From NCBI GenBank assembly GCA_046595815.1, contig JBKJSN010000088.1, positions 10,264 through 74,263 of the forward strand: a stretch of 64,000 nucleotides of DNA, given 5' to 3'. The first letter of the stretch is position 1, and each line of letters starts with the position of its first letter. This DNA comes from Mycobacteriales bacterium (GTDB lineage: Bacteria; Actinomycetota; Actinomycetes; Mycobacteriales; SCTD01). The translations under genes were made by a program, and so were the position numbers. Under the pieces are notes generated by a model that saw only the letters and a list, made by a program, of their open reading frames with translations, was not told the DNA's origin and searched no databases. This document shows positions 7,346 through 58,441 of this stretch, one piece after another.

Positions 7346-8637
7346 TCCTCGGTGCTGTGGCTCAGGAAGATCCGCACGTGTGCGGCCGCCACGAGCAGGA
7401 TCAGCGCGACCGCCAGGCTCTTGGCGAGCTGGGCCGTGTCGATGCTGTTGGTGAGCGAGGCGACAGGCGAAGAGAGCACCTTGGTCGTGGTCTTCCCGGG
7501 CTGGTCGGCGTAGGGCAGCGTCGGCTGGTACACCTCCGACCCGGGGGCGGTCACGGGGAAGGTCGTGGCCGGCAGCGGGGGCAGCTTGGGGATGCCCAGG
7601 CTCGGGGAGAACCGGTTGAAGCTCAGCGCGAAGGCACGCCGTGACGCGGCGATCGGCGGCAGGGTCGGGATGGTGATGGGGCGCGTCACGGAACCGCTCG
7701 AGGTGCCCGTCGCGCCGGTGCTGGTGCCCGTAGCGCCGCCTGTGGTGCCGGTGGTGCCGCCGGCCGTCGTACCGCCGGTGCTCGAACCGGTCGTACCACC
7801 GCTGCCGGACCCGGTCGTGCCACCCGTCGTACCCCCGGTGGGCGTAGGCGTCGGGCTCGGCGGCGGCTGAGGAGTCACCAACTGCGCGCCGGCCGTGTTG
7901 GACCACTCGGAGGCCAGGTCGCTGCCGCCGGTCCCGCTCTTGCGGAGCGCCCGCACCGTGTAGCGGTAGTCGTAGGTCCCCGGCGTGGGGTTGTCGTAGT
8001 ACGCGGTGTATGAACGGTCCGACGGGCCGGCGTTGAACGTGCTGCCCTTGCCGTCGCTGATCTCGAACCCGGTGAGGTCGGTTTCTTGGCCGCTGTAACT
8101 CCACTGGACGTCCACACGGCTGGCTCCGGTGCTCTGGGCGCTGACCGAGCTGGGCGTCGTCGTCGGCCCGAAATTGGTGTAAAAGGCCACGGGCGAGGTG
8201 CAGTTGTTGGCAGCGTCGTCGCACGTCTTCGCGGTCCACTTGCCGTTCACGTAGGAGCGCAGCTTGTCCAGGGTGATGGTGAAGCTGGCGGTCTTCGAGC
8301 AGCTGCTGACCAGGTTCGAGGAGCAGCTCGTGATCGACGGCGTGGCGTTGTAGCCGCGCGCCGGGCTCCCGAAGTCGGCCGGTCCGTCGATGACGATCGA
8401 GCCGCCGCTGCTCGTGCCGTCGGTGTTGGTGATGGTGCCCTTGACCATGACGTCCTGGGTGGCCGTCCCGTTGTTGCTGACCCCCGAGAGCGAGACGGTG
8501 AGCGACTGCGCGGCGAGCGCGGGAGTCGCGGTGGCCCCGATAAGGGCACTCGACAGCGGGAAGGCGAGCGCGAGCACCGCGACGGCCGCACGGGGCCGAC
8601 GGTAGGCACGAGTAGTCACATCACGCTCCCTTCTCAC
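7342..8637 (-). CDS. secreted fibronectin-III-like, Gly/Thr-rich protein with C-terminal TM helix
   Basis: Signal peptide (AVAVLALAFPLSSALIGATATPALAA). Long GGTTG/PTPTP low-complexity linker. C-terminal helix LAVALILLVAAAHV. GTG start overlaps the sortase stop (GTGA). Confidence 0.7.
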   Translation of the reverse strand: MRRERDVTTRAYRRPRAAVAVLALAFPLSSALIGATATPALAAQSLTVSLSGVSNNGTATQDVMVKGTITNTDGTSSGGSIVIDGPADFGSPARGYNATPSITSCSSNLVSSCSKTASFTITLDKLRSYVNGKWTAKTCDDAANNCTSPVAFYTNFGPTTTPSSVSAQSTGASRVDVQWSYSGQETDLTGFEISDGKGSTFNAGPSDRSYTAYYDNPTPGTYDYRYTVRALRKSGTGGSDLASEWSNTAGAQLVTPQPPPSPTPTPTGGTTGGTTGSGSGGTTGSSTGGTTAGGTTGTTGGATGTSTGATGTSSGSVTRPITIPTLPPIAASRRAFALSFNRFSPSLGIPKLPPLPATTFPVTAPGSEVYQPTLPYADQPGKTTTKVLSSPVASLTNSIDTAQLAKSLAVALILLVAAAHVRIFLSHSTED

Positions 8638-9326
8638 TTGACGTCCTCGGTCAGTGCTGGGTTCAACTCAAGCCGCAAGATCAGTCGCTGCCGGGCGCTG
8701 CCCTTCGGGTGGCAGGTCGTGAGCGTGAGCAGGTGCTTGCCGGGTGTGTCGAGCAGCACCTCGGTGTTCTCCGGGCTGACCGGCCACGGGTTCGGGTGAC
8801 CATCGAACGCCGGCGTCACGATGTAGTGGAAGACCTTGAACGGGGTCTCCAGGATCACTTCGTCGCCTCGGGTCAGCTCGTCGAGGTGGTTGAAGGGGCG
8901 CCCGAAAGTGGTGCGGTGGCCCGCGATCGCGACGTTCCCGCTCTCGCCCGGAAGTGGCGTGCCCGCGTAGTGGCCGGCGCCGGCGCGGAGCGCGGCAGCA
9001 CTGGTGCCCTCGACCACGAGCACGTTCAACTTGATCTTCGGGATCCTGATCCGGGTCAGCACGCTGCCTTCGGCGAAGCGCCCGTCCAGATAGCTCTGCT
9101 CGAGCCGCGACCCACCGAACTGACCGTCCAGCTTGCCCTGCTGGTAGCGGCTGAAGGCGTCGGTGCCGACGGGGTAGGCGAACATCGCCAGCCCGGACAC
9201 CATCAGCATCACGAAGAGCACCGACAGCGACCGGCGGCCGCCGGGGCGGCGGAGCGCGTCACCACACAGGGCCGCGAAGCCGCGCGGCTGCGCAGGCACT
9301 GCGGGTGTGACGAACGACGGTTCCAT
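8634..9326 (-). CDS. class E sortase
   Basis: N-terminal TM anchor. Catalytic motifs NVAIAGHRTT and LTLTTCHP...R (TLxTC). Confidence 0.9.
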   Translation of the reverse strand: MEPSFVTPAVPAQPRGFAALCGDALRRPGGRRSLSVLFVMLMVSGLAMFAYPVGTDAFSRYQQGKLDGQFGGSRLEQSYLDGRFAEGSVLTRIRIPKIKLNVLVVEGTSAAALRAGAGHYAGTPLPGESGNVAIAGHRTTFGRPFNHLDELTRGDEVILETPFKVFHYIVTPAFDGHPNPWPVSPENTEVLLDTPGKHLLTLTTCHPKGSARQRLILRLELNPALTEDVK

Positions 9327-9469
9327 CTGTGGGTGCTCTTCCTTCGTACGGCGTGACGGTGCTGCCCTTGGACCAACGAAGGCGCGCCCTCGAGGTTACG
9401 CCGGACAGCCCAACGATCCCCGTCTGTACAGGTACGACGGACTTATCCGCCCTTCGGTTCCCGCTCGAC

Positions 9470-45651: not shown

Positions 45652-47451
45652 CTAGGTCTCGTTGATGACACGGCCGCCGAGCTGGTCCTGCAGCAGCGCG
45701 ATGGCGGCGTCCTCGCCGTGCTGCACCGCGCGCTCCGGCTCGGGCGCCTCGGGGTCCACGGGCTCGATCTCGTCGCCGGGGGCGAACCCCTCATAAGCGG
45801 GTACGGCGGCAGCTGGCGCCTCGGGCAAGGTCGGGGACTCGGCACCCACGACCAGGGCCAGATCGACCTGGAGCCCGAGCACCTCGGCCAAGGCCTCCTT
45901 CAGGACGGCTTCGTTCGTGCCGGTCTGGAAGGTGCGGATCAGGCCGGCCGTCGAGAAGCCGAGGGTCAGGGTCCGGCCGGTGAGGCTGAGCACGGTGGCG
46001 TTGAGCAGCAGCGCCTTCGTGGCCCGCTTGCGGCTGTTCGCGGCGTCGAGCACCGCATCCCAGGACCGGCGCAACGCGGTGGCGTCCAGGCCCCCTGCGG
46101 CAGCCGGTTCGGCGGGCGTGCTCGCTGCGGGCTGGGGTTCCGCCGTACCGCCGAGGGTTGCGGCGGCCGGCCACGCGGCGGGGGCGGGAGCGGGCGCTGC
46201 TGGAGGCGCTGCTGCGGGGGTCGGTGCCGGCGTCGCGGCGGGCGGGGGTGCGACGGGAGCCGAGCGAGGCGCGGCCGCGGGGGCGTCACCGATGTCGAAG
46301 CGACGCTCCAACCGCTCGAGGCGGGTGAGCAGCGCGGCCTCGTCGGTCGAGGCGCCCGGAAGGAGGACGCGCGCGCACAGCAGCTCCAGTAGCAACCGGG
46401 GCGCGGTCGTGCCCTTGAGCTCGGTGAGGCCGTCGTGGAACAGGTCGGCGGCACGGGAGAGCCCAGCGGGCCCCATCGCCTGCGCCTGCCGGAGCATCGC
46501 GGGGAGCTGGTCCTCGGGGACGTCGAGGAGCTTTTTGTCCAGGGCCTCGGGTACGGCGGCCAGCACGACCAGGTCACGAAGCCGCTGCAGGACGTCCTCG
46601 ACGAAGCGACGCGGCGCCAACCCGCTCTCCAGCACCTGGTCGACGGTCGCGAAGACAGCCGCGCCGTCCTTGGCCGCGAAGGCCTCCACGACGTCGTCCA
46701 GCAGGGTGTCCGGGGTGACGCCGAGCAGCGACGCGGCGCCTTCACGGGTGACCCCGTCCGGACCGGCAGCCGCGAGAACCTGGTCCAGGATCGACAGGCC
46801 GTCACGGGCACTGCCGGCGGCGGCGCGCACGACGAGGGGCATGACGGTCGGGTCGACCGGCACGCCCTCCTTGGCGACGACCTCCTCCAGCAGGGCGGTG
46901 AGGTCGGCGCGCGGCATGAGCCGGAAGGGGTAGTGGTGGGTGCGCGAGCGGATGGTGCCGAGCACCTTCTCCGGCTCGGTGGTGGCGAACACGAAGCGCA
47001 GGAACTCCGGCGGCTCCTCGACGAGCTTGAGCAGCGCGTTGAACGCCGCCGTCGTCACCATATGAGCCTCGTCGATGATGTAGATCTTGTAGCGGCTCAA
47101 CACCGGGGCGTAGAAGGCCCGCTCACGCAGGTCTCGGGCGTCGTCGACGCCGTTGTTGGAGGCCGCATCGATCTCGATGACGTCGAGGGTTCCGCTGCCG
47201 TTCGGCGCCAGCCCGACGCAGCTGTCGCACTCGCCGCACGGGTCGGGGGTCGGACCCTGCTCGCAGTTGAGCGACCGCGCGAGGATGCGCGCGCTGGAGG
47301 TCTTGCCGCACCCGCGCGGACCGCTGAACAGGTAGGCGTGGTTCACCTTGCCGTTCAGCAGCGCCTGTCGGAGCGGACCGGTGACGTGCTCTTGGCCCTT
47401 GACCTCAGCCAAGGTCCCGGGACGGTACTTGCGGTACAGCGCCAACGACAC
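45652..47451 (-). CDS. dnaX: DNA polymerase III subunits gamma/tau
   Basis: GTG start 47451 (VSLALYRKYRPGTLAEV), Walker A GPRGCGKTS, zinc module CGECDSC, DEAH (IIDEAHM). The track start further upstream would run through the SRP RNA. Confidence 0.9.
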   Translation of the reverse strand: MSLALYRKYRPGTLAEVKGQEHVTGPLRQALLNGKVNHAYLFSGPRGCGKTSSARILARSLNCEQGPTPDPCGECDSCVGLAPNGSGTLDVIEIDAASNNGVDDARDLRERAFYAPVLSRYKIYIIDEAHMVTTAAFNALLKLVEEPPEFLRFVFATTEPEKVLGTIRSRTHHYPFRLMPRADLTALLEEVVAKEGVPVDPTVMPLVVRAAAGSARDGLSILDQVLAAAGPDGVTREGAASLLGVTPDTLLDDVVEAFAAKDGAAVFATVDQVLESGLAPRRFVEDVLQRLRDLVVLAAVPEALDKKLLDVPEDQLPAMLRQAQAMGPAGLSRAADLFHDGLTELKGTTAPRLLLELLCARVLLPGASTDEAALLTRLERLERRFDIGDAPAAAPRSAPVAPPPAATPAPTPAAAPPAAPAPAPAAWPAAATLGGTAEPQPAASTPAEPAAAGGLDATALRRSWDAVLDAANSRKRATKALLLNATVLSLTGRTLTLGFSTAGLIRTFQTGTNEAVLKEALAEVLGLQVDLALVVGAESPTLPEAPAAAVPAYEGFAPGDEIEPVDPEAPEPERAVQHGEDAAIALLQDQLGGRVINET

Positions 47452-47471
47452 CCGCAGGTCCTCCTTCAAGG

Positions 47472-47565
47472 AAAGGACCCCTCGCGCACCCGCCAAGAGC
47501 CCGCCTGCCCTTGCTGCCTTCCGGCCCTGGGGGGGTTCAGCGAGAAGAGCGCCGCACGAGGGGTC
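47472..47565 (-). ncRNA. ffs: signal recognition particle RNA (small bacterial type); ends approximate
   Basis: The minus strand contains the conserved domain IV core CCAGGGCCGGAAGGCAGCAAGGGCAGG, closed by the long helix GACCCCTCG...CGAGGGGTC. Canonical position between tRNA-Ser and dnaX. Confidence 0.75.
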
Positions 47566-47627
47566 TGCGCCCATCCTAGGGGTACGGCGGTCAGGTGCTG
47601 CTCGGGCGCTGCGCTAATCTCATCGAC

Positions 47628-47716
47628 GGAGGATTCGCCTAGTTGGCCTATGGCGCACGCTTGGAAAGCGTGTTGGGGGCAACCCCTCGCGAGTTCGAAT
47701 CTCGCATCCTCCGCCA
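47628..47716 (+). tRNA. tRNA-Ser (anticodon GGA), CCA encoded
   Basis: Acceptor GGAGGAT/ATCCTCC, anticodon stem CACGC/GCGTG with loop TTGGAAA, long variable arm (GGGG/CCCC), T arm GCGAG-TTCGAAT-CTCGC, then G plus CCA. Confidence 0.9.
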
Positions 47717-47756
47717 CGACTCTCCCGGGTCTTCGGATCCTGACGGGGTGCTGGGC

Positions 47757-48360
47757 TCATCGGACGACGATGGAGCCCAGCACTCGCCAGTTCGGTTTGC
47801 CGGCATAGAGCAGGGCACGGACTCGGTAGTTGCGGAAGTTGCGGAAGCCGAACCCGATCCGCTTGATGCGCTTGATCAGGTTGTTGAGCGCCTCGGTGGG
47901 GCCGTTGCCGACGCGGGCGATGTGGAAGTTGCAGATCTTGTCGAACCACTTCTCGAGTGTGCCGCCGAGTTTGCGGAGCTCGAAGGGCATGGTGGGTCGC
48001 TTGCAGTGCTCGATCAGCTCGCGGAGCATCGCTCGGGCGGGGTCGATGTCGGTGCAGCGGTAGAACTCGCGCAGCCGTTCTTTGACCCGGTAGGCGATCG
48101 CGACCTCACCGTTGGGGTCGCCCTGGGCCAGCAGTGAAGCCAGTCGTTGCTGGGCTGCTTCGGTGAGCCGTTCCTCACCGGTCAGCAATACGCGACGCAC
48201 CCGGAACAGTGGGTCGCGCGCGACGTCCGCGGTGGCCCTTGTCCTCGCGTTGCACCCGGCGCCGGACCTCATCCAGCGCCCGGTTGGCGAGCTGGATGCA
48301 AGGGAAGGCGTCAACGACCTGCTTGGCCTTGGGCAGCGCTGCGGGGCTCGCGCGCAGGTC
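47757..48360 (-). pseudogene. ISL3-family transposase remnant (5'-truncated, frameshifted)
   Basis: C-terminal ISL3-like sequence (RVRRVLLTGEERL ... NGPTEALNNLIKRIKRIGFGFRNFRNYRVR). A different frame upstream reads KQVVDAFPCIQLANRALDEVRRRVQRE..GHRGR. Frameshift near 48214-48222, in-frame TAG at about 48361. No N-terminal half. Confidence 0.8.
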
Positions 48361-48449
48361 CTAGGCGTCGCTATTCGGTCGGCGGCGTCGGCGTTCTCGA
48401 GTGTTGGGGAAGGGAACGTTTGGTGCGTGCAGAGCCGACGTTCTGGACA

Positions 48450-49238
48450 TCACCGACCGACCCGCTTCAGGGGCGGAACCTGAGCAGCGCCGAAGATGGC
48501 GGGCCGGGACACCTGCACCGCGACCACGAAGCACACCGCCCACAGCACGGCGACCGCAGCCCAGGTCCGCCCGATGCTGCCCGCCAGGTCCGGCTCAAAC
48601 CACGAAACGACTGCCAGCCAGACAGTCGCGGTCCCGACACACCAGGTCGGCACACGCCACCCCTGGGGGTGCCCCGCGGCCAGAGTTGCTCCCAGCAGCA
48701 ACGCGATGGGGAGCGCCGCCTGGATGGGCCAGTGGTCAAGGCCCCAGGTGTCATCTGCGACGAGATTGGTGCCGGTCGCTCGGGCTGAGTTCCACGAATA
48801 GGCGAAGGCCGGGGCGGCGGCCAGGACCACGAGCGCGGCCGGTAGCAGAGACGGCCGCCAGTACGACGGCCACGCTCGGAGCCCACCCCCCGTCGCCGCG
48901 AGAACGGCCGTGGTCACTGCGAGAGCGGCCGCGACGACGAGGTGCCCAGCCGACCCGCTCACTGCCGAAGCCGTCGCGACCGCCACGGCCACTGCGACCA
49001 CCAGGCCGAGCGCGGCTGGCGTGGCAGCCGCCGGCCTCACCACGAGTGCCAGCAGCGGCGCAGCCACCAGGAACAGAAAGAGCAGCCCCCAGCCGGTGGA
49101 CAGCAGCAGGGTCCGGTGGAAGTCCGGACCCTGCGCGAAAGCTAAGAGGTCGGTCAGGCCGAAGAAGAAAAATCCCCACAAGACGGCGAGGGCGGCGGCC
49201 AGAGTGCGGTGCAGGCGGGCCACAGACAGGCACCTCAT
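48450..49238 (-). CDS. integral membrane protein, function unknown
   Basis: 262 aa with about 8 hydrophobic helices. No motif recognised. Confidence 0.6.
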   Translation of the reverse strand: MRCLSVARLHRTLAAALAVLWGFFFFGLTDLLAFAQGPDFHRTLLLSTGWGLLFLFLVAAPLLALVVRPAAATPAALGLVVAVAVAVATASAVSGSAGHLVVAAALAVTTAVLAATGGGLRAWPSYWRPSLLPAALVVLAAAPAFAYSWNSARATGTNLVADDTWGLDHWPIQAALPIALLLGATLAAGHPQGWRVPTWCVGTATVWLAVVSWFEPDLAGSIGRTWAAVAVLWAVCFVVAVQVSRPAIFGAAQVPPLKRVGR

Positions 49239-49681
49239 TGCGGGGCGTTAGGACGTCGGTGACGGGCCCGGCGGCGCCCGCTTGTGAACTGAACTGCGGC
49301 CAGCGTCGTGACTAGAACGAGGTCCCCCGTGCTTCTGTGTGACCCAAGACGACGTCCAAAGCGGCGACCCCCAGGGGCCGCAAGATCACCGGCATCACTG
49401 GGTCATCCAGCGCGTTCAGTCGCGTCACCAGGGTCATGGGCGCCAGTATGTCCCATCCTGCGCGTACTCGCGGCGATCGTGACCGGCATCCCTGCCGTTC
49501 TCATCAGTCCAGGCGATCTTGCTCCCACGCACTTACCCGCCCCGATCCCAGCCCGCTGCCGTACGGGCCGTTGTTCGTCGCTGTGCCGGACCTGGGTGAA
49601 GGCGCTTCCTGCCGGCGAGCTACCCGCCTTCGTGGCGGATGTCATCAGTGCGGCCCGCCAGCGGGAAGCTCCCGGTGCCGG

Positions 49682-49732
49682 CGAAAGCGTCTTGGGGGCA
49701 ACCCCTCGCGAGTTCGAATCTCGCATCCTCCG
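49682..49732 (+). repeat. duplicate of the 3' half of tRNA-Ser(GGA) (att-type direct repeat; partner 47664-47714)
   Basis: GAAAGCGTcTTGGGGGCAACCCCTCGCGAGTTCGAATCTCGCATCCTCCGC is identical to 47664-47714 except for one base (50/51). It starts in the anticodon loop and ends in the acceptor stem. Confidence 0.9.
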
Positions 49733-49737
49733 CGCAA

Positions 49738-49775
49738 CCGACGACCCCGGTCCCTCCCTTGGGCCCGGGGTCGTC
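49738..49775 (+). terminator. strong hairpin just downstream of the tRNA-Ser fragment (probable original tRNA terminator/processing stem)
   Basis: 12-bp perfect arms CGACGACCCCGG (49738-49749) and CCGGGGTCGTCG (49764-49775) with a 14-nt loop. No clear T-run. Confidence 0.5.
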
Positions 49776-49834
49776 GTCGTGCGTCGTGTCATGGCTTGTA
49801 CGCCGTCCCGCTCGGGGCTGGCCGTGACATCGAA

Positions 49835-49870
49835 AACCCCTGAACCCGCTCAGCTGTGGGTTCAGGGGTT
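49835..49870 (-). terminator. hairpin terminator candidate (minus strand)
   Basis: 13-bp perfect arms AACCCCTGAACCC / GGGTTCAGGGGTT with a 10-nt loop. On the minus strand the stem runs into TTTTCG. It lies about 310 nt downstream of the 644-aa gene. Confidence 0.5.
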
Positions 49871-50181
49871 CTCGATCTCCGAAGAGATCACATTGGCGGG
49901 GTGGCGACGAAACTCCAAACCCGCAGGTCACAGTCATGGTCAACGAGATTCGCCCAAGGCGGTGCACGCGTTTTGCCCCGGACCTTGCACACTCCACAAA
50001 CCGACTCTCGAGGCGCGGAGCCTGAGTCGTACGGTGCGGTTCTGGGTGCGGTTCTGGGTGCGAGCGGGTGCCGTTGCCTGCCGGGTGAAGCCAGGGGCTG
50101 TCTTCGCAGCGAGCTGGTCGAAAGCGAGGTTGCGCTACTGGCAGATCCTGACCTGCTCAAAGCTTGGCGCCGCAGGTCTTC

Positions 50182-52116
50182 CTATCGGGTCTGACCGGTG
50201 CTCTCGGGCGCAGGCTGAGCTGCAGTCGGCTGCTGACGCAATCGGTGCGCCAGCAGGCTCTCCCGTCCTGCATCTGTGAGCCGGAAGGTCGAGGTGGGGC
50301 TCAGGGGGTTGTCGGTTGTACGGAGGATGAACCCCTTCTTCTCCGCCTCAGAAATCCAGCGGGTGCGGCTCTTGGTGGAGGCGAGGCTGAGCGCCTCAGC
50401 GATGCCCTTGGGTGAGAGCTCTCCGCCGCTACTGGCGTCGATGGCTGCGAGGAGCTCAGGCACCCGGCTCTCCCTGCTCCGGCCGTCCCTCACGGGCTTC
50501 TGCTGCTCATGCGCTGGCGCCTCGATAGCGCCAGCTCCCCGATCAGCTCCCCCGGTGCCCGCGGGCTCGTTGCTCAGCCTCCACGACGAGCTGTGCTTGC
50601 TACTTAGACGGTGAAGAATGCCGGCATCTTCGAGTGCCCGCAGTTCCGCTGCGGCGTCCACAAGCGCGCACGGTGCCAGGCTTCGGGCGGCCAAGTGCGT
50701 CCCGAAGGAAACGCCTGCCAGACCTGACTCGTTCACCTCCTCGCGCAACTGCATCAGACGGAGCAGAACGCTGACTAGGCGCAATCGGGCCGGGGAGCCC
50801 TCGACCTTCTTCTTCTCGAGCACCTGCCGGGCTGGCTCAAGGTCCAGCGTTCCCCTCAGCATGATGACCTGGAATGCGTTGGGCTTGTCTACGAACAGGA
50901 TTGGCATGCAGCCTGCAACGTGACACGCCTCGTCGGCGGCGGCAATGCCTGAGGTTTGATGCTCAACGATGCGAGCCCCGCTTGGGGAACGCAGCTCCTC
51001 AGCGATCCGCACCAGGCTGACGTTGCGTACGCCGGACATGTGGGTCATCCCAAGCTTCTCCAGGTCTGCATCCACGTGCAGTCCCCCTGGGCTGGTCACC
51101 ACAACCGAGGAGTCTGCTACCTCCACGAGCACGCTCGTGTCTCGTTGCGAAGGGGCGAACCCCCGGTGCACGAGGGCGTTGGACAAGACTTCTCGGAGTG
51201 TCTCGCGGGGAATGTCGAGCTCATCGAAGAGCTGCCCGCGCCGAACGACCTGCATGATGCCAAGTTCTTGATTCAGCGCCTCGAGTGTTTTGTCGAGCAG
51301 CTCCCCGGCGGTGCCGTCGATGTTGTGCGAAGCGAAGCGGGTGTCAGGAGGATCCGTGGCCTTGGGGTGCCTGCGGTAGCCGATGCGGCCGCTGTCGCTC
51401 CGGGTGTGGGGGTTCTCGCCTAGCGTCACTAGTCCGGCGTAGGTGAGCGTGCCGTCATCTCGCAGAACCCCCCACTGACGAAGCAAGTGCTCGTTGCCGT
51501 GCTCGGCCGACTTGGGGTTGGCGTTCCGTAGCGCCTGACAGAAGGCGTCGGCGGCAACGGTGTTCAGCGTGCTTCCCTCAGGGGCAGCCGCCCGGCTGAG
51601 GTCCTCACGCTTGCGGTTTGCCAACATTCCCGCGACCTCGGAAGGTGTCAGTCGCTGGTCGCCATCGCCCACTCGGATGAACGACCCCTTCTCGGGCCCA
51701 TCGCCCGCTCGGTGGCAGGGACGCTCATCTCTGGGTACCGCAGGAATGTCTGCGATCAGGACGGTGCCGTCGGGGTGGCTGACCAAGCTGATGGTGGCCC
51801 TCAGCGGTGGCTGCATCGATGCGCAGACTGCCTGAAACTCCGAGAGCATCTTTTGGGGGTTGTCCACGCCCGTCACGTCGAACGTGCCCGAGTTCTCGAA
51901 CACACCCAGCAAGAAGATGCCGCCCTCGCCGTTTGCAAAGGCACTGAGGGTTTCGTGGGTGGTCTCTGGAAGCGCTCGTTGCGCCCGCTTGGCTTCGATG
52001 AACTGATGGTCCGTTTTGACATCCCGAAGCTCGGCCAAAAGAGCATCCAAGGCATCGACATCCATCGGTGAGGCAGCTCCTGTCACGCGCAGCACGGTCC
52101 GCTCAGGAGTCCTCAA
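50182..52116 (-). CDS. AlbA_2 (Schlafen-like) plus HATPase_c_4 plus C-terminal winged-helix protein (putative DNA-binding ATPase/regulator)
   Basis: AlbA_2 signature (FIEAKRA ... LSAFANGEGGIFLLGV). HATPase_c_4 signature (REVLSNALVHRGF ... VVVTSPGGL). C-terminal wHTH-like segment (LSPKGIAEALSLASTKSRTRWISEAEKKGFILR). Track start 52116 is TTG; ATG 52065 (MDVDALDALL) is an alternative. Confidence 0.8.
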   Translation of the reverse strand: MRTPERTVLRVTGAASPMDVDALDALLAELRDVKTDHQFIEAKRAQRALPETTHETLSAFANGEGGIFLLGVFENSGTFDVTGVDNPQKMLSEFQAVCASMQPPLRATISLVSHPDGTVLIADIPAVPRDERPCHRAGDGPEKGSFIRVGDGDQRLTPSEVAGMLANRKREDLSRAAAPEGSTLNTVAADAFCQALRNANPKSAEHGNEHLLRQWGVLRDDGTLTYAGLVTLGENPHTRSDSGRIGYRRHPKATDPPDTRFASHNIDGTAGELLDKTLEALNQELGIMQVVRRGQLFDELDIPRETLREVLSNALVHRGFAPSQRDTSVLVEVADSSVVVTSPGGLHVDADLEKLGMTHMSGVRNVSLVRIAEELRSPSGARIVEHQTSGIAAADEACHVAGCMPILFVDKPNAFQVIMLRGTLDLEPARQVLEKKKVEGSPARLRLVSVLLRLMQLREEVNESGLAGVSFGTHLAARSLAPCALVDAAAELRALEDAGILHRLSSKHSSSWRLSNEPAGTGGADRGAGAIEAPAHEQQKPVRDGRSRESRVPELLAAIDASSGGELSPKGIAEALSLASTKSRTRWISEAEKKGFILRTTDNPLSPTSTFRLTDAGRESLLAHRLRQQPTAAQPAPESTGQTR

Positions 52117-52122
52117 CGCTCG

Positions 52123-52310
52123 AACCCTTTACCCAAACCTTACACCCAACTCCTGACTTCCCGCCCACTTGGGTAAAGGGTTCCCTGGCGCTCGGCCTGC
52201 GATACACGCTCAGAACTACCCCATGTGAGCAAGTTGGGTAAAGGGTTTCGGGCAAGTTGGGTAAAGGGTTGGTGCCTTGGGTAAAGGGTTGGTGCCTTGG
52301 GTAAAGGGTC
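52123..52310. repeat. iteron array: 14-bp motif TTGGGTAAAGGGTT, five direct copies plus one or two inverted copies
   Basis: Direct copies at 52169-52182, 52234-52247, 52257-52270, 52277-52290 and 52297-52310 (last base C). Inverted copy AACCCTTTACCCAA at 52123-52136. Degenerate inverted copy (11/14) at 52136-52149. The last three form 20-bp tandem units TTGGGTAAAGGGTTGGTGCC. Confidence 0.9.
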
Positions 52311-52514
52311 TCTGACGAGGGGGTGTGCCAGGTAACTGTTCAAGTAGAAGCGCTACCGACCCCGGACGTCCACTTCTGCCGGTGCCTGAGAGGGCCTGGT
52401 GGCGGCGCTACCGCGTTGCAGCCAGCAGTCAGGTTCTCATGAGCACGCCTAACAAGCCGGAAAGATGGGTCCAACCGCGCGCATTGTCGTGCTTGCTCGC
52501 AGGAGCGGCGTACG

Positions 52515-52748
52515 GTGCACACAATGGACCCTCTTGACGGTTTGCCGTCCGAGTCGCGCGCCGAGGTAGTGGCCGCTGTACAAGCCGCTTGGGACGTGAG
52601 CCCGGCCGCGGCTGAGGAGATTCTCCGCGCCGCTGAGCCGCTGTGGAACGTGCTCGAGGAACACGGCGGAGTGGATACCTGGGGCGGTATGGAGTTCGTC
52701 AATGTCTTCCCGCAGGCACTTGTACTCATCCGCAAAGCGTGCAACTGA
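52515..52748 (+). CDS. small acidic hypothetical protein (77 aa)
   Basis: GTG start 9 nt after AGGAG. About 70% G/C at third codon positions, within a locally lower-GC region. No motif recognised. Confidence 0.55.
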   Translation: MHTMDPLDGLPSESRAEVVAAVQAAWDVSPAAAEEILRAAEPLWNVLEEHGGVDTWGGMEFVNVFPQALVLIRKACN

Positions 52749-52833
52749 CGTACGTTCCAACGAGGCGCAGCCGATCCAAGCAGGTGCACCAGTTAGACCC
52801 ATCCCATCCGTCTTGTTAGCCGTACTCAGGTTC

Positions 52834-54375
52834 TCACAAGCGACGCAGAAGCCTCAGCCACCTGGGCCGTACCGGGCTTACGTCGTCCGGCAGGGGCTCG
52901 GGACTCGGTTCTGGCGCGAGTTCGAGGCCCGCATGGAAGGCGAGCTCCCGCCGCTCGTTCCGGCTGAGCCCACTCGTAGCAAGCCGCGCGGTCATCCGGT
53001 TGCGCAGCGCGGGAGCTGGCTGCCCCCAGGTCGTCGCGGCGCCTGCATGGAGCCAGTTGCGTAGTGCCGCCCGACCGAGGCCCGACAGCTGCGCATCGTC
53101 ATCAGCGGCGGCGCGCAGGTCGGCGTCAACCCGGTCCCAACTTCCAGCAGAGCGGCTGAGCCGCCACCCCGCCCTCCGGCTCCACGGTTGCTCGGACGCC
53201 CACGCCGGTTCAGCATCCGTGCCCGATGCCCCCGCCCGGGCGAGGCCGCGAGCTGCGGCAGAGCAGACTCGGCTACTGGGATCGAGCAGCAGCGGCCGGA
53301 GCTGTTCCCGGACACGGGCAGGTGTGCCGAGGACGGCGACAGCGGCGACAGCGTTGGCGCGCACCGCCGGGCTCGCGTGCGGCAAGTAGGTGCCAGCGAG
53401 GTCGGCGTCGTCCTGGCCGGCGCCGACGACCGAGAGTCCGTCGAGCGCTGCGGCGACTCGCCGGGTGCCGCGTGCACCCTCGACGAGCCAGCCGCGGTAC
53501 ATCGACGCAGGGTTCACATCTCGTCGCCGAGTCCGCCACTGCGCCGTTTCGCGGACCCGAGCGGATGGGTCGTCGAGAAGACTCAGCAGCGTCGTGGTGT
53601 CCAGGGCGCCGTCGTCGAGGCATGTGAGGGCAAGAAGCCGTCCGTCGACGAAGCGTGAGCCAAGTAGCTCGAGCAACTGTGCGGGTGTTGCGGTCGCCTT
53701 CAACCACTGAGCGGCAAGGGCTCGCACGAACTGGTCCCTCTCGCCGCGGACCGCAGCCATGAGCTCGTCGGTACTGAGCAGGCCCCGGTCGTGTGCAGCC
53801 TCGAAAGCCCATCTGCGAACGCGCCGGTCGGCGCTTGCTTGCAACGTCGGGAGCAGGCTCTGCTCGTCATGGACGGCGAAGAGCGCATCGAGGTAGCTGG
53901 CGAGTGCCTGTGGGGCGTGCTGCCGCTGCCGCCCGGCCAGCAGCACGCCGAGTGCGGACGAGGCAGCCTCGGGCGCGGTCTGCAATCGCAGCCCAAGCAG
54001 CGCGTCTTCGCGTACTTGCGGGACGTGGTCAAGGCAGCGCAAAGCTAGGGCCGCTGCTCGCAGCACGCCGGGGCTGCCGGCGAGGACCTTGGTGGCGCGC
54101 TGCCGAATGCGTCCGTCCGCGTGCAGGCTCGTTACCGCGGCCACGAACCCGGTCTTCTCCGCGAGGTTCGACCCGAGCCAGCCTCTCGTGCCGCTGACGG
54201 GCGCACCGCCGCTCATGTATCCGTAACTGCGGGCGTGGTCGTCGAGCTGGAGCCAGTCCCTGCCGCCTAGGACGCGAAGCCATGTTGCGCCTTCGATGCA
54301 GGCGGTCGTGTCGTTACCTGTGACGGCGTCCGCGAACGCCTGTAACGCCTCGCGGGCCTGCGACGGTGTGAGCAC
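52834..54375 (-). CDS. HEAT/ARM-like repeat protein, function unknown
   Basis: 513 aa. Recurrent HEAT-type signatures (DGRIRQRATKVL, DRRVRRWAFEAA, DPSARVRETA, HASPAVRANAVAA, DPSSRVCSAAARGL). GTG start abutting a palindrome. Confidence 0.65.
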   Translation of the reverse strand: MLTPSQAREALQAFADAVTGNDTTACIEGATWLRVLGGRDWLQLDDHARSYGYMSGGAPVSGTRGWLGSNLAEKTGFVAAVTSLHADGRIRQRATKVLAGSPGVLRAAALALRCLDHVPQVREDALLGLRLQTAPEAASSALGVLLAGRQRQHAPQALASYLDALFAVHDEQSLLPTLQASADRRVRRWAFEAAHDRGLLSTDELMAAVRGERDQFVRALAAQWLKATATPAQLLELLGSRFVDGRLLALTCLDDGALDTTTLLSLLDDPSARVRETAQWRTRRRDVNPASMYRGWLVEGARGTRRVAAALDGLSVVGAGQDDADLAGTYLPHASPAVRANAVAAVAVLGTPARVREQLRPLLLDPSSRVCSAAARGLARAGASGTDAEPAWASEQPWSRRAGWRLSRSAGSWDRVDADLRAAADDDAQLSGLGRAALRNWLHAGAATTWGQPAPALRNRMTARLATSGLSRNERRELAFHAGLELAPEPSPEPLPDDVSPVRPRWLRLLRRL

Positions 54376-54408
54376 GTCCTAGATCGTGACGTAGTTCGGT
54401 CTAGGACG
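54375..54408. promoter_or_regulatory. 9-bp inverted repeat with 16-nt spacer at the HEAT-gene start (candidate operator)
   Basis: CGTCCTAGA (54375-54383) and TCTAGGACG (54400-54408), in the divergent region between the HEAT gene and the recombinase-like gene. Confidence 0.45.
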
Positions 54409-54547
54409 CGCGGAGGTTACTGGGCGAACGCAAGAACTTGAGCTCCGCTAGGTCGTGCGTGTTCCTTTCGCTTCCGGCCGTTCTCACAAACCTGGCTAAC
54501 CGTCGCCGATGTGAGGGAGTCCCTGGCCGCGACGCAGGACGCAGCGG

Positions 54548-56401
54548 TTGCAACCGCGGATCGAGACCGGACCTGTGTTCGTTGTGACCACAGAGGGTTC
54601 GACGGAGACGACGGTGCAGCGGCTTGCCCGCTACACCCCGTATCTGCTGACCGCGGCGCAGTGGGCGCTCGCACAGGCTCCGGTGACGAACGCCGTCCTC
54701 GCTGCTGCTCCTGCCGATGCTGCTGACGCGATGGGGTTGGCCTCTCGGCTGTGCCGGCTACTTGTCGAACACCCTGGCTGGGACGGCCTGAGCGTTCCGG
54801 ACCTGGCCTTGTTGGTGACCGACCCGGGGATCAGCGCGCACATAGCGCGACTGGCGGCTTCCGGGACTTCCAGCCAGGGTCAGGGCAAGCATCTGTGCGA
54901 TCTTCGCCGGCTCAAGCACGCTCTCGCCGGGACCGTTGCCCCTGTGCGGGCACCCGTTCGCAAGCCAGTGGCTCCGTCGGCCGCCACCCGGCCACTGATG
55001 TCCTGGCTGGCAGCGGGCGAGCCGCTGCTCACGGCGGTGGCCGCGTATGAGAAGTCAACCGGCCGCAGCCTGAGCAAGAAGGTGATGAACCGGGCTGCTG
55101 AGGGAGCGCCGGCGTCGAGTGCGGCGGCGCCAGATCCGGGCACCGTGCTCTCGCTGAGCTCCGTCGGGGCTCCTGCGTGGGAAGTGGTGAGTCCACGAAC
55201 ATGGGCACGGTCATCCTCTGAGAGCACCTCCGGACCACTCAGGTCCGCCGCCCGGGCAGCGAGCGCGACGTCGAGCGCGACCTCGCGCACCTCGGGACCT
55301 GCTACTTCGGTGAAGCCGTCACGAGCTGCGGCGCTGCGTGCGGCGAAGGCAGCTGCCAGCGCGCGTTCAGCCCCGACTGTGACTGCCCTGCCCGACGTGA
55401 GCCTGCTGCCTGCAAAGGTGCAAGAAGCGATCGCCGAGTACCGCCCAGCAGCTCTCAGCGCCGAGCGCTGGGAGATCCTTGGGCCCCTGTGCCGCCGCCT
55501 CATCGCCAGCTACGCACCAGTCACTGCCGGGGTTGCCCGTTCGAGCGCGACCTCTATTGCCGCGTTCGTCGCGTGGATCCAGACGCGGCCGGGGCGGGCC
55601 GACGTTGGTGGCTCCGTTGCGGTTGAGGAGCTTCAGACCGCGGGCCTTCTCGATGTGTACCTGACGGAGTTGGCTGCTAGCGGGACGCCAGATCCGTCGC
55701 TGGCGACGTACCGGTCTGTGCTTCGGCGAACACTGAAGGCGCTGGACCCCAGCCCTCCCGCGGCGATCGCCTACCAGCCGATCGCTGGGCCGTACAGCGC
55801 CGCAGAGTGCGCCGCGTACGTGCGGCTGGCCCGCAACCAGCCCACCTCCCCTCGCCGTCGGGAACTCTCGACGATCGTCGGGCTCGGTCTCGGTGCCGGG
55901 CTGGACGGCAAAGACCTCCGCGCGGTGTGCCCGACCGATTTCAGTGACGCGACGCTCCCTGACGGAACGCTCGTGCTCCTTGTGCAGGTCCGCGGCGGCC
56001 GCCCCCGGACGGTGCCCGTCCGCGCGCTTTACGCCGATCTGGTCCGGGAAGCGCTGGCCCTGCACGCCAGCGATCGTCGGGGTTCCAACACGCCGCTGTT
56101 GGGCGTGAAGCCGACGCGGAAGAGCATCACGAGCCCAGCTATCCGCGACGCCGTCACCGCTACCGATGACAGCGTTGACATCGCGGTGAACCGGCTCCGC
56201 GCGACGTGGCTGGTGGCGTGTCTGGCCGCAGGCATCCCCCTCGGGCCGCTGCTGCACGCTGCTGGGCTGCGCTCAGCCAGGACCCTTACGGACCTGCTCG
56301 CGTACTGCCCCGCGCCGAACCCAGGCGACGTCAACCGACTCCTCGCGACCCTTCCCGCCGGTCCTTCTGGAACGCCTCCTGCGCCGGCAGGTGCGACATG
56401 A
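54548..56401 (+). CDS. tyrosine-recombinase-like protein with long N-terminal extension; catalytic residues appear partly substituted
   Basis: The C-terminal half has a core-binding-like segment (SIAAFVAWIQ ... ATYRSVLRRTLKAL) and an integrase-fold-like segment (GLGAGLDGKDLRAV, RGGRPRTVPV, NRLRATWLVACLAAGIPL, AGLRSARTLTDLLAY). TTG start is uncertain. The middle is low-complexity Ser/Ala/Arg. Confidence 0.55.
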   Translation: MQPRIETGPVFVVTTEGSTETTVQRLARYTPYLLTAAQWALAQAPVTNAVLAAAPADAADAMGLASRLCRLLVEHPGWDGLSVPDLALLVTDPGISAHIARLAASGTSSQGQGKHLCDLRRLKHALAGTVAPVRAPVRKPVAPSAATRPLMSWLAAGEPLLTAVAAYEKSTGRSLSKKVMNRAAEGAPASSAAAPDPGTVLSLSSVGAPAWEVVSPRTWARSSSESTSGPLRSAARAASATSSATSRTSGPATSVKPSRAAALRAAKAAASARSAPTVTALPDVSLLPAKVQEAIAEYRPAALSAERWEILGPLCRRLIASYAPVTAGVARSSATSIAAFVAWIQTRPGRADVGGSVAVEELQTAGLLDVYLTELAASGTPDPSLATYRSVLRRTLKALDPSPPAAIAYQPIAGPYSAAECAAYVRLARNQPTSPRRRELSTIVGLGLGAGLDGKDLRAVCPTDFSDATLPDGTLVLLVQVRGGRPRTVPVRALYADLVREALALHASDRRGSNTPLLGVKPTRKSITSPAIRDAVTATDDSVDIAVNRLRATWLVACLAAGIPLGPLLHAAGLRSARTLTDLLAYCPAPNPGDVNRLLATLPAGPSGTPPAPAGAT

Positions 56402-58104
56402 TTCCTCGGACCGAGCTCGACCGTGCGGTCGCGCTCGTGCGGCGCTCCGGCGTGCATAAGGACCTCGAAGCAAGGCTGCGTCCAGACGGCGCGGGCGGGC
56501 GGCCCCGGCAACTGCCCGTTGACGTGTTTCTCGCCGGCGTGATCTTGGCCGCGGGCAGCCGCAAGAACCTGGCCTTGACGAACGTGCATGCGCTCCTGAC
56601 CGGCGACATCGCCCGGTCGGCCCAGATCCAGTACGGGATCCGTTGGACGGACAAGGCCGGCGCCAGCCGCTGCCTGACGCTCCGGCAGGTCCGGTACTTG
56701 CTGGAAGCTCTCGAAGGAAAACTTGCCGCGACCCCAGGGCGGGCACCTGACCTGGACGACGTTGAGCGCGCCGAGCGCACCGACGCGCTCCAGTCCGTGC
56801 TGGACAAGCTCCTCGCCGCGACCATGCCGGTCCACCTACCGCCCGCAGACCGCTTCGCGCTCGACGCGACCTCGATGGAGTCCTGGGGCAAAGGCAAGCG
56901 CCGCACGGCCGTCGCGGTGCCCCAGGTGGAGCCGGAGGGCACTGGCGCGCACCCGCCGGCGGGGGTCGCTGAAGGTGACCTGCTGGCCATTGCACTCGAG
57001 GCTGGTGCCTCGTTCGACCCTGATGCTGACTGGGGCTACCGGACCCGCACGTACGACAACAAGACCAAGATGTGCTTTGGGTACGACGTGTTCGCGATCA
57101 CTGCGATGCCCAAGCCTGGTGGCACCGGAGTGCTCGACCGGCCGGTTCTGACCGAACGGCTCGTGGTCGCGCCGGCGAGTGCCGATGTCGTCGCTCCCGC
57201 GCTCGGGATGTTCGACCGGCTCACCGACGACGGCCGGACGGTCGTGGAGGTCGCCGCCGACCGCGCCTGGTCCTACAAGCTTCCCGATCGGTGGGCGGAT
57301 GAGCTTCGCGCACGGGAGATAGAAGCCGTGCTGGACCTGCACCCTAACGATCAGGGCGTCCGGGACTTCGAGGGAATCCGGATGGTCGCCGGGACGCCGC
57401 ACTGCCCTTCGATGCCCGATGAGCTGATCAACATCGTCCGGCCCGCGAACCTCTCCGCTGGCCGCGACCGGCCCCGTGCCAGTGCTGTACAGAAGGCCGA
57501 GCGAGCAAAGCGCAACTCGGAGCTCGAGGAGTTCGCGGCCAAGATCGCCGAGCGTGAAGCGTGGGCTTTCCGCCGGGTCGCCGGACCCGACGAGACCGGC
57601 AAGGAGCGCTGGGAGTGCCCCGCGCAGGCCGGCAAGCGCAGCTGCGGCAACTGCCCGTTCAGCAAGGACTTTCCGGTCGGCACCCCGACGGTCGAGAACC
57701 CGCCTGAGCTCACGACCGCGCCCAAGTGCTGCACCCAACGGACCGTGACGATCCCCGGGTCGGTCACGCCCAAGATCCGTCAGCGCCTGTACTGGGGCAG
57801 CCCCGAGTGGATCGCGTCGTTCAACCGACGGACCTACATCGAGGGCGTGTTCGGCAACATGAAGTCCCCCAAGACCGAGAACGTCCGCCGCGGCTGGACG
57901 TTCGTCGTCGGGATCGTCAAGACCAGCCTCATGGTCGGGTGTGTTGCTGCTGCCGCGAACCTTCGCACGCTCCGGGCATGGGCGGCACGAACCGGAGACC
58001 ACAGGGACCCCCTCACCGTCATCGACCCCGTCAGCGCCGGGTTCGAGGAGCTCGAACCCGACTGCGGCGCCACCGGTATCCACGGGCCACCGCTCGCCGC
58101 CTGA
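56398..58104 (+). CDS. DDE transposase-like protein (IS4/IS5-superfamily type, YREK-like signature) with Cys-rich insertion
   Basis: ATG 56398 overlaps the upstream stop (ATGA). DUF772/InsH-N-like N-terminus (GRPRQLPVDVFLAGVILAAGS). Candidate D (FALDATSMESW), D (EVAADRAWSY), E in F-x2-R-x3-E-x6-K (FNRRTYIEGVFGNMK). Cys cluster WECPAQAGKRSCGNCPFS. Confidence 0.65.
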   Translation: MIPRTELDRAVALVRRSGVHKDLEARLRPDGAGGRPRQLPVDVFLAGVILAAGSRKNLALTNVHALLTGDIARSAQIQYGIRWTDKAGASRCLTLRQVRYLLEALEGKLAATPGRAPDLDDVERAERTDALQSVLDKLLAATMPVHLPPADRFALDATSMESWGKGKRRTAVAVPQVEPEGTGAHPPAGVAEGDLLAIALEAGASFDPDADWGYRTRTYDNKTKMCFGYDVFAITAMPKPGGTGVLDRPVLTERLVVAPASADVVAPALGMFDRLTDDGRTVVEVAADRAWSYKLPDRWADELRAREIEAVLDLHPNDQGVRDFEGIRMVAGTPHCPSMPDELINIVRPANLSAGRDRPRASAVQKAERAKRNSELEEFAAKIAEREAWAFRRVAGPDETGKERWECPAQAGKRSCGNCPFSKDFPVGTPTVENPPELTTAPKCCTQRTVTIPGSVTPKIRQRLYWGSPEWIASFNRRTYIEGVFGNMKSPKTENVRRGWTFVVGIVKTSLMVGCVAAAANLRTLRAWAARTGDHRDPLTVIDPVSAGFEELEPDCGATGIHGPPLAA

Positions 58105-58351
58105 CGTTCGTACAGCGAAACACCAGCTCCACCCCGTACCCGCTCGGCCCCTGGCCGGACGGGCTACAGCCATGCCCGCAGTACGCCTCGCGTGGGAGCG
58201 ATGAGCAGCTACGGCCGGTCGCCGTGCCCGGAGAGCTCCCCGGAAGCGACGCGACGACGCTCCGAAACGGCAACTCCCCGTGTTCTCGCCACCTGGGCAA
58301 GATCACGGGGAGTTTCGTAAGTCGGAACCCCTGAGTTTCGTCAGGACCCCT

Positions 58352-58441
58352 TGGCGGTGGCGGTGGGATTTGAACCCACGGAGGAGTTGCCCCCTCACAC
58401 GCTTTCGAGGCGTGCTCCTTCGGCCGCTCGGACACGCCACC
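58352..58441 (-). tRNA. tRNA-Ser (anticodon CGA), CCA encoded
   Basis: The minus strand reads GGTGGCGTGTCCGAGCGGCCGAAGGAGCACGCCTCGAAAGCGTGTGAGGGGGCAACTCCTCCGTGGGTTCAAATCCCACCGCCACCGCCA. Anticodon loop CTCGAAA, long variable arm, T loop TTCAAAT. Confidence 0.9.

Follow-up and report, generated by a model that had tools for sequence, protein, structure and literature searches.

A probable decayed integrative element between two copies of the tRNA-Ser(GGA) 3' part in a Mycobacteriales bacterium

Introduction

We analysed a stretch of 64,000 nt from a Mycobacteriales bacterium (GenBank assembly GCA_046595815.1, contig JBKJSN010000088.1, positions 10,264–74,263), called the window below; all coordinates are those of the window. 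The 3' part of its tRNA-Ser(GGA) gene occurs twice, and the two copies bracket 2.0 kb of DNA. Most probably, this bracket is what decay has left of an integrative element that entered the tRNA-Ser(GGA) gene through recombination by a tyrosine integrase. A first-pass annotation of the window had already proposed a decayed integrative element, and the proposal is supported here by a truncated insertion sequence (IS), which occupies the place of the integrase gene in relatives.

Results

The direct repeat and the two att sites

The intact tRNA-Ser(GGA) gene is located at 47628–47716 on the + strand and has an encoded CCA. It was called by ARAGORN, folds into a cloverleaf with −42 kcal/mol, and represents the attL side of the remnant. 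According to the repeat search, a direct repeat of 51 nt with a spacing of 2019 bp is present at 47664–47714 (copy 1) and 49683–49733 (copy 2), and 50 of the 51 nt are identical (98%). The first-pass annotation had reported this duplication with one mismatch and had placed copy 1 correctly, whereas its coordinates for copy 2 were off by one. The left boundary of the repeat is tRNA position 37 (the second base of the anticodon), and the right boundary is the first C of CCA. Copy 2 on the + strand corresponds to attR. It is a partial tRNA-Ser(GGA) 3' part lacking the 5' half and the CCA, and it shows no cloverleaf or tRNA-like fold (z = 0.13).

The sole mismatch is between G47672 and C49691, and it affects the anticodon stem at its last base, on the 3' strand. 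In copy 2, the distance from the left edge to the mismatch is 9 nt, and the 42 nt after the mismatch are perfectly identical between the copies. As the element-derived left side of attR need not match the tRNA perfectly, a mismatch at this point fits the integration model.

A 40-mer and a 22-mer taken from the repeat were searched in the window with up to three mismatches. Each was found exactly twice, and the number expected from shuffled sequences is 0. The 22-mer search, with three mismatches allowed, detected no third or degenerate att copy and no tandem array in the window. Thus, the 51-nt repeat is not a dispersed repeat, an origin that the first-pass annotation had named as contrary to integration.

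The geometry from the anticodon to the CCA matches that of the att sites which tyrosine integrases use in tRNA genes, and the boundary in the anticodon loop is a canonical one. The sublocation classes in tRNA genes are the anticodon loop, the T-loop and the 3' end (bioRxiv 10.1101/2020.11.02.365908). The signature of integration into a tRNA 3' end, recognized in the first-pass annotation, therefore holds according to this geometry and to the use of the same tRNA in relatives (see below). A Logan contig of the run SRR31159417 is identical (100%) to 47659–49693 of the window and covers both inner junctions. The bracket structure exists in reads, though this contig possibly comes from the same sample as the assembly. 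On excision, the attB junction is expected to be ...GAAAGCGTGTTGGGGGCAACCCCTCGCGAGTTCGAATCTCGCATCCTCCGC|GCAACCGACGACCCCGG, and the circular attP junction ...CCGGTGCCGGCGAAAGCGTCTTGGGGG...CATCCTCCGCCACGACTCTCCC.

Content of the 2.0-kb bracket

Next to the tRNA end, a 10-nt spacer CGACTCTCCC (47717–47726) is the only element-side arm left beside attL. It is followed by the remnant of an ISL3-family IS at 47727–48340 on the − strand, which was identified by Pfam, NCBIfam and tblastn. The IS end, located 10 nt past the tRNA, has the terminus GGGTCTTCGG at 47727–47736, and this terminus is similar to that of an ISL3 copy of Kocuria (...CCGAAGACCC vs ...CCGAAGGGCCC). The fragment matches PF01610 with E = 6e-30 (profile positions 107–239 of 240) and, partially, the NCBIfam model transpos_ISL3 (NF033550) with E = 8e-31. 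In the tblastn alignment, the 434-aa Kocuria ISL3 transposase is aligned to 48336–47799 in two frames, as residues 243–284 and 281–420, and the frameshift is located near 48211–48221 (~48215). Only the C-terminal part of the transposase is present at 47799–48336 (residues ~243–434 of ~434, ~190 aa, 44%). The 5' ~55% and the other end of the IS are missing, and the tRNA-proximal end alone is left. The IS is a dead fragment, and no other copy of it is found in the window.

The loss of the second IS end together with 55% of the gene places one endpoint of the deletion within the IS. The deletion junction is located approximately at 48341–48449, where the IS homology ends and the 3' flank of the next gene starts. 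The tblastn homology to the IS stops at 48336, and 48341–48449 shows no coding signal.

The next gene (48450–49238, − strand) encodes a polytopic hydrophobic membrane protein of 262 aa. Its GC content at third codon positions is 0.83. The open reading frame (ORF) is a genuine gene, and it is taken to be the surviving cargo of the element. The protein has no match in Pfam, NCBIfam or PADLOC. Down to E = 1e-10, 88 homologues were detected, which are mostly metagenomic, and none of them has a Pfam domain. The DNA homology to a 71%-identical homologue is limited to the coding sequence. The first-pass annotation had suggested searching for homologues next to an integrase and a tRNA-Ser att site. 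We inspected the contexts of six homologues, which are mutually unrelated, and neither a tRNA-Ser nor an integrase was present in any of the six. The membrane-protein gene was accordingly dropped as a marker of a recognisable element family.

A non-coding stretch of 444 bp (49239–49682) without a codon-position GC signal lies between this gene and copy 2. It presumably contains the promoter of the membrane-protein gene and the element-side arm of attR. Arm-type repeats and promoter signals in this stretch did not rise above chance, and no similarity to it was found in plasmid records.

No integrase or integrase fragment was detected in the bracket by Pfam, NCBIfam and PADLOC, or by tblastn with four integrases of the family found in relatives (none with E < 1). 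The bracket is therefore classed as a remnant and not as a functional member of such elements. The content described in the first-pass annotation, a truncated and frameshifted ISL3 transposase and a 262-aa membrane protein with no integrase, is borne out by these analyses.

The ancestral 3' end and the inter-tRNA interval

Behind copy 2, an inverted repeat on the + strand forms a hairpin at 49739–49776, which is taken as the ancestral terminator of tRNA-Ser(GGA). The arms 49739–49754 and 49761–49776 are 16 nt each with one mismatch (94% complementary), and the folding energy is −37.5 kcal/mol (z = −4.8). A 12-bp-stem hairpin had been described at 49738–49775 in the first-pass annotation. The hairpin is real, and it is stronger than described. 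In most of the relatives compared, a GC-rich hairpin is present ~10–30 nt past the tRNA-Ser(GGA) 3' end.

A second serine tRNA gene, tRNA-Ser(CGA), is located at 58352–58441 on the − strand (ARAGORN). It is convergent with tRNA-Ser(GGA) and lies at the far end of a hypervariable interval. Most of this interval is occupied by a transposon-like element of 8.45 kb, separate from the remnant, which is described below. A second hairpin at 49826–49879 on the − strand, followed by UUUU, is taken as the terminator of tRNA-Ser(CGA) before the insertion of the 8.45-kb element. Its 22-nt arms are 91% complementary, and the folding energy of the minus strand is −42.7 kcal/mol (z = −5.0). When the 8.45-kb element is subtracted, a spacer of 159 bp (49734–49892) is obtained, which contains two strong hairpins, one for each of the convergent tRNA genes. 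The hairpin behind each tRNA in this spacer indicates that the ancestral 3' end of tRNA-Ser(GGA) consists of copy 2 and its hairpin. This conclusion, which had been suggested in the first-pass annotation, is thus supported.

The interval between the tRNA-Ser genes is 1.4–9.6 kb in the 19 relatives with both genes, and 10.6 kb in the window. The minimal interval in Streptosporangiales contains two genes, one for a protein of 96 aa and one for a zinc metallopeptidase-like protein. Across the Actinomycetota, the inter-tRNA-Ser interval is a hot spot of insertions.

As a side observation, Rfam at the gathering threshold lists a tRNA-Pro and the signal recognition particle (SRP) RNA in the window, and neither of the two tRNA-Ser genes, which are called by ARAGORN and fold into cloverleaves.

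The same tRNA gene in relatives

We compared 80 dnaX-linked actinobacterial loci (designated by L numbers) with flanks of 10 kb. In the species-representative collection, the closest genomes are a Frankiales metagenome-assembled genome (MAG) with 78% DnaX identity and a Mycobacteriales MAG with 74%. In none of the 80 loci (0/80) was a homologue of the bracketed genes found at this site, at the DNA or at the protein level; the nearest locus has only 78% DnaX identity. Thus, the bracketed genes are not conserved residents of the site, and the conservation that the first-pass annotation had named as contrary to its reading is not the case.

Six of the 80 relatives (L011, L039, L040, L067, L077 and L080) have the tRNA-Ser(GGA) 3' part in two or three copies. 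The repeat starts at tRNA position 32–35, in the anticodon loop, in five of the six, and it starts later, in the variable arm, in L080. A tyrosine integrase gene convergent with tRNA-Ser(GGA) was found in five of the 80 relatives: Actinomadura cremea (L039), A. rupiterrae (L042), Nocardiopsis sp. (L060), a Nocardioidaceae MAG (L053) and Streptacidiphilus fuscans (L013). These integrases are 410–440 aa in length and have the canonical R...HxxR...Y residues (GLRxGE, HDARHT and the terminal Y). The distance between the integrase end and the tRNA 3' end is 72–77 nt in L053 and L060, and 1.3–2.3 kb in L013, L039 and L042. The integrase gene in relatives adjoins the intact tRNA, which is the position of the IS remnant and the deletion junction in the window. 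In L039, the repeat is 55 nt in length with the same right boundary as in the window (the first C of CCA). It brackets 7.6 kb containing genes for a DUF3987/DnaB_N primase-helicase, an HTH_17 Xis-like protein and a truncated tyrosine integrase. These results show that tRNA-Ser(GGA) is a recurrent integration site.

Extra repetitive DNA was observed between the integrase and the tRNA at the two Actinomadura loci. L039 has a 315-bp tandem duplication at 7383–8098 beside the integrase ORF, which is terminated after 299 aa, ahead of the HxxR and Tyr motifs. L042 has a 348-aa ORF of SEAQRK-type repeats at 8322–9368. These features suggest ongoing decay or insertion at the integrase–tRNA junction in other lineages.

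Six small brackets of 1.7–4.6 kb are present in L011, L040, L067, L080 and L077 (two), and none of them has an integrase match in Pfam. As the flanks are 10 kb, only brackets below ~9.5 kb are detectable, and this sample is biased towards deletion products. In four genomes, the repeats of the small brackets are 77–119 nt in length and 96–100% identical, and they extend past the tRNA through the terminator hairpin. In L077 (Streptomyces flavusporus), three copies are arranged in tandem. The cargo genes are unrelated between different small brackets and include those for an ABC-2 transporter together with MarR, a HigB toxin, DUF6959 together with ankyrin, and a DUF234 ATPase together with helicase/WYL proteins. 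The small brackets may be remnants of deletions, or they may be cassettes that are mobilised in trans.

Searches for related elements

The 42-mer core of the repeat gave no exact match in viral contigs. A 25-mer with the variant base of copy 2 gave no match in viral and metagenome contigs, and a 25-mer across the junction of the tRNA and the 10-nt spacer gave no exact match in metagenome contigs. A 53-nt att segment, the sole query used on the phage collection, gave no blastn match in phage records. Against plasmids, the matches of the 53-nt segment were limited to four sites in Streptomyces megaplasmids, none of which carries an annotated feature, and the only matches of the whole bracket were ISL3 transposase fragments.

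Discussion

Formation of the remnant and alternative explanations

The following course of events is proposed for the bracket. An integrative element would have entered the tRNA-Ser(GGA) gene by site-specific recombination of a tyrosine integrase. The 3' part supplied by the element, including the CCA, would have regenerated the intact tRNA (attL, 47628–47716). The original 3' part without an encoded CCA would have been displaced, together with its terminator, at least 2 kb downstream (attR 49683–49733 and the hairpin 49739–49776). We infer these integration steps from the att geometry and the relatives. An ISL3 element would then have inserted 10 bp behind the tRNA, and a later deletion from inside the IS would have removed the 5' half of the IS and the adjacent element DNA, including the integrase end. 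The membrane-protein cargo gene, the 444-bp non-coding arm and both att sites would have survived as a non-autonomous scar. The former presence of an integrase in the bracket is suggested by the truncated IS, which lies where this gene is found in relatives. Judged from this arrangement, the IS insertion would have preceded the deletion, and the integrase would have been lost in an ISL3-associated deletion. The lost recombinase was probably akin to the integrase family of the relatives, as judged from the shared site.

Several observations weigh against this course of events. An integrase fragment is undetectable in the bracket, so that the former integrase is only deduced. The GC content of the bracket is 0.63–0.73, which is barely below that of the flanks. 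The viral, metagenome, phage and plasmid searches revealed no intact relative of the bracket element, and the six membrane-protein homologue contexts are unlinked to integrases or tRNA-Ser. No empty-site genome was found, the closest relatives having only 74–78% DnaX identity. In addition, the closest relatives encode a CCA after this tRNA, and the proposed ancestral end, copy 2, lacks it. As other relatives also lack an encoded CCA, this point is not decisive on the ancestral flank.

An alternative is that the bracket was never autonomous. In this case, an att-flanked cassette would have been inserted by a tRNA-Ser(GGA)-specific integrase acting in trans, and it would still be excisable. The two att sites are intact and match perfectly over 42 nt, and the six small brackets in the five relatives are all without an integrase match. 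The high identity of their long repeats in four relatives also differs from what old decay predicts, and tandem transfer of a cis-mobilizable element (CIME) with an integrative and conjugative element (ICE) has been observed (PMC5704250). However, the small brackets are affected by ascertainment bias, as the brackets visible below ~9.5 kb are the likeliest deletion products. Moreover, the truncated IS lies exactly at the integrase position of the relatives and directly indicates a deletion, no integrase of that family is present elsewhere in the window, and the cargo genes differ between the brackets without any relationship. We regard insertion of a cassette in trans as unlikely. The wider proposal that integrase-less cassettes flanked by copies of the tRNA-Ser(GGA) 3' part are recurrent cargo shuttles in Actinomycetota, mobilised in trans and forming arrays as in L077, is also a doubtful one, although the window and the six brackets in five relatives fit such a pattern. 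If this is true, the shuttles would functionally resemble CIMEs or the tRNA-flanked satellite islands found in marine cyanobacteria.

Copy 2 might also be the boundary between two elements in tandem, the older island being the DNA at 49.8–58.3 kb with a decayed distal att site. The GC content falls to 0.58–0.66 over 49800–52800, the downstream DNA contains mobile-element genes, and arrays at this tRNA exist, as the three copies in L077 show. However, the downstream DNA is fully explained by the 8.45-kb element, which has its own inverted termini and a 7-bp repeat at tRNA-Ser(CGA), and independent copies elsewhere share its architecture. A third copy of the tRNA-Ser(GGA) 3' part is absent even with three mismatches in 22 nt, and only 159 bp with the two hairpins lie between copy 2 and the 8.45-kb element. 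The delimited element and its independent copies effectively refute a tandem-array boundary at copy 2, and we consider it very improbable. An origin of the repeat without a recombinase, by segmental duplication, gene conversion or an assembly artefact, would agree with the presence of just two copies and no recombinase, and with the draft state of the contig, for which the confirming Logan contig is maybe from the same sample. On the other hand, the boundaries of the repeat fall on functional landmarks of the tRNA (the anticodon and the CCA), the repeats of five other genomes start in the same anticodon loop, and the copies enclose DNA that has no relationship to the flanks. Both inner junctions are found with 100% identity in the Logan contig, and the target duplication of ISL3 elements is about 8 bp, not 51. 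Such an origin has very little probability in our view. The decay of an element integrated by a tyrosine integrase thus remains the preferred explanation.

The neighbouring 8.45-kb element

The transposon-like element next to the remnant occupies 49893–58357 including its flanking repeats, and its body is 49900–58350 (8451 bp). It is located at the CCA end of tRNA-Ser(CGA). The flanking direct repeat TTGGCGG is found at 49893–49899 and 58351–58357, and corresponds to the CCA end of tRNA-Ser(CGA) plus 1 nt. The length of this repeat is 7 bp, possibly 5 bp. The termini of the element are the imperfect inverted repeats GGGGTGGCGACGAAAC and GTTTCGTCAGGACCCC, and subterminal repeats GAGTTTCGT(A/C)A are present. 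A search for a partial copy of tRNA-Ser(CGA) gave no repeat of 11 nt or more; the 7-bp repeat emerged from the comparison with related elements.

Related copies were found in the contigs L091 and L093–L099. Two of these copies are complete and independent; their termini are the same, and their 7-bp repeats co-vary (TCAGCGG in L091 and CTGGCGG in L096). According to its own termini, the 7-bp repeat and the co-varying copies, 49900–58350 is a discrete insertion at the 3' end of tRNA-Ser(CGA). The region 49893–49993 of the window is homologous to the sequence past the right end of the module described below in L093 and L094, which contain tandem elements. The left ends of the copies in L098 and L099 were not located.

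At the right end of the element, two overlapping ORFs, 54548–56401 (617 aa, protein A) and 56395–58104 (569 aa, protein B), constitute a module that is conserved in metagenome contigs. Seven contigs reach the right end, the tandem contigs L093 and L094 not counted, and in all of them the module abuts the 3' end of a tRNA or tmRNA gene. The targets are tRNA-Ser genes with the anticodons CGA (three), GCT (one) and TGA (one), a tRNA-Ser(UGA)-like pseudogene (one), and a tmRNA (one, in a distant member).

Protein A has no sequence match in Pfam, NCBIfam or the PDB, and hhalign against canonical integrases gave a probability of only 19%. Its family comprises 2,314 cluster representatives with essentially no Pfam coverage. 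The AlphaFold model is of low confidence (mean pLDDT 61). In the fold search of this model against the PDB by Foldseek, the top matches were solely tyrosine recombinases. The conserved motifs and the Foldseek result suggest that protein A may be a divergent tyrosine recombinase without the first catalytic Arg. Protein B scores 28 bits with the NCBIfam IS models, for which the cutoff is 270, and many of its homologues have PF13751 or PF01609. By sequence, protein B is a divergent DDE transposase.

The cargo of the element differs between copies. It consists of Schlafen/AlbA_2 and HEAT proteins in the window, a type I restriction-modification system and a TIR protein in Cellulomonas sp. CW35, and an APH-family kinase in L091. 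The terminus–7 bp–terminus junction in the tandem copies resembles a simple tyrosine-recombinase site, and the inverted termini and the short duplication resemble those of DDE transposition. For a circular or tandem form of the 8.45-kb element, the junction GTCAGGACCCC-TTGGCGG-GGTGGCGACGAAACTC is expected. A shallow literature search found no published description of this element family. The 8.45-kb element is a more unusual object than the remnant and a better candidate for follow-up.

Upstream neighbourhood

The genes recR, ybaB and dnaX are located upstream of tRNA-Ser(GGA), all on the − strand, and the small SRP RNA gene (ffs) is located at 47470–47568 on the − strand. The order dnaX, SRP RNA and tRNA-Ser(GGA) is kept in the relatives whose loci were checked. 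The mechanically listed dnaX ORF (45652–47574, − strand) covers the entire SRP RNA gene. Because of this overlap, the true dnaX start must be further downstream in the gene, and it is probably near the conserved SLALYRKYRP motif.

Comparison with known systems

The integrase-bearing elements of the relatives (L039, L042, L060, L053 and L013) use the same target gene beside dnaX and ffs. They share only the tRNA part with the window, in which an integrase, an Xis protein and a replication gene are absent. In actinomycetes, elements and phages integrated at tRNA 3' ends are well known, such as pSAM2 at tRNA-Pro, SLP1 at tRNA-Tyr and mycobacteriophage L5 at tRNA-Gly. As in the bracket, attP and attB of these elements are identical over tens of bp of the tRNA 3' part, and one junction has a regenerated intact tRNA and the other a partial copy. 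In contrast, these elements are 11–50 kb in length with int, xis, and replication/transfer or virion genes, whereas the bracket is 2 kb and has none of them.

CIMEs are decayed derivatives of ICEs or of integrative and mobilisable elements (IMEs), and were first defined around ICESt1/ICESt3 of Streptococcus thermophilus (PMC5704250). By analogy, the remnant may be regarded as comparable to a CIME, that is, as an ordinary decayed integrative element. Like a CIME, the bracket keeps attL and attR (50/51 identical, 42 nt perfect), and it is small, contains only cargo and would derive from the decay of an integrated element. Pfam, NCBIfam and tblastn detected no integration or transfer genes in it, and the truncated IS at the integrase position of the relatives suggests that they were once present. 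CIMEs differ in that they come from Firmicutes, have protein-coding or tRNA-Lys targets, and were shown to be mobile by accretion with a related ICE. The window contains no cognate ICE or integrase. The candidates for the parent element in the present case are a prophage, an actinomycete ICE (AICE), a satellite or an IME. In Klebsiella, tRNA-associated islands have tRNA-derived direct repeats, and a minority of the islands lack an integrase (bioRxiv 10.1101/2020.11.02.365908). The bracket is similar to these islands in the direct repeats of a tRNA part, in the variable presence among relatives, and in the absence of an integrase that characterises the minority. The Klebsiella study applied a minimum size of 3.5 kb, and its islands are mostly of low GC content, whereas the bracket is smaller and nearly of the same composition as the host.

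For the annotation of this genome, 47717–49682 should be marked as acquired DNA, and 49734–49892 corresponds to the ancestral spacer between the convergent tRNA-Ser genes. The remnant is a common kind of genomic scar, and it provides one more case of tRNA 3' ends as landing pads of mobile DNA. It illustrates how elements integrated at a tRNA gene would decay to remnants containing only cargo after an IS and a deletion have removed the integrase.

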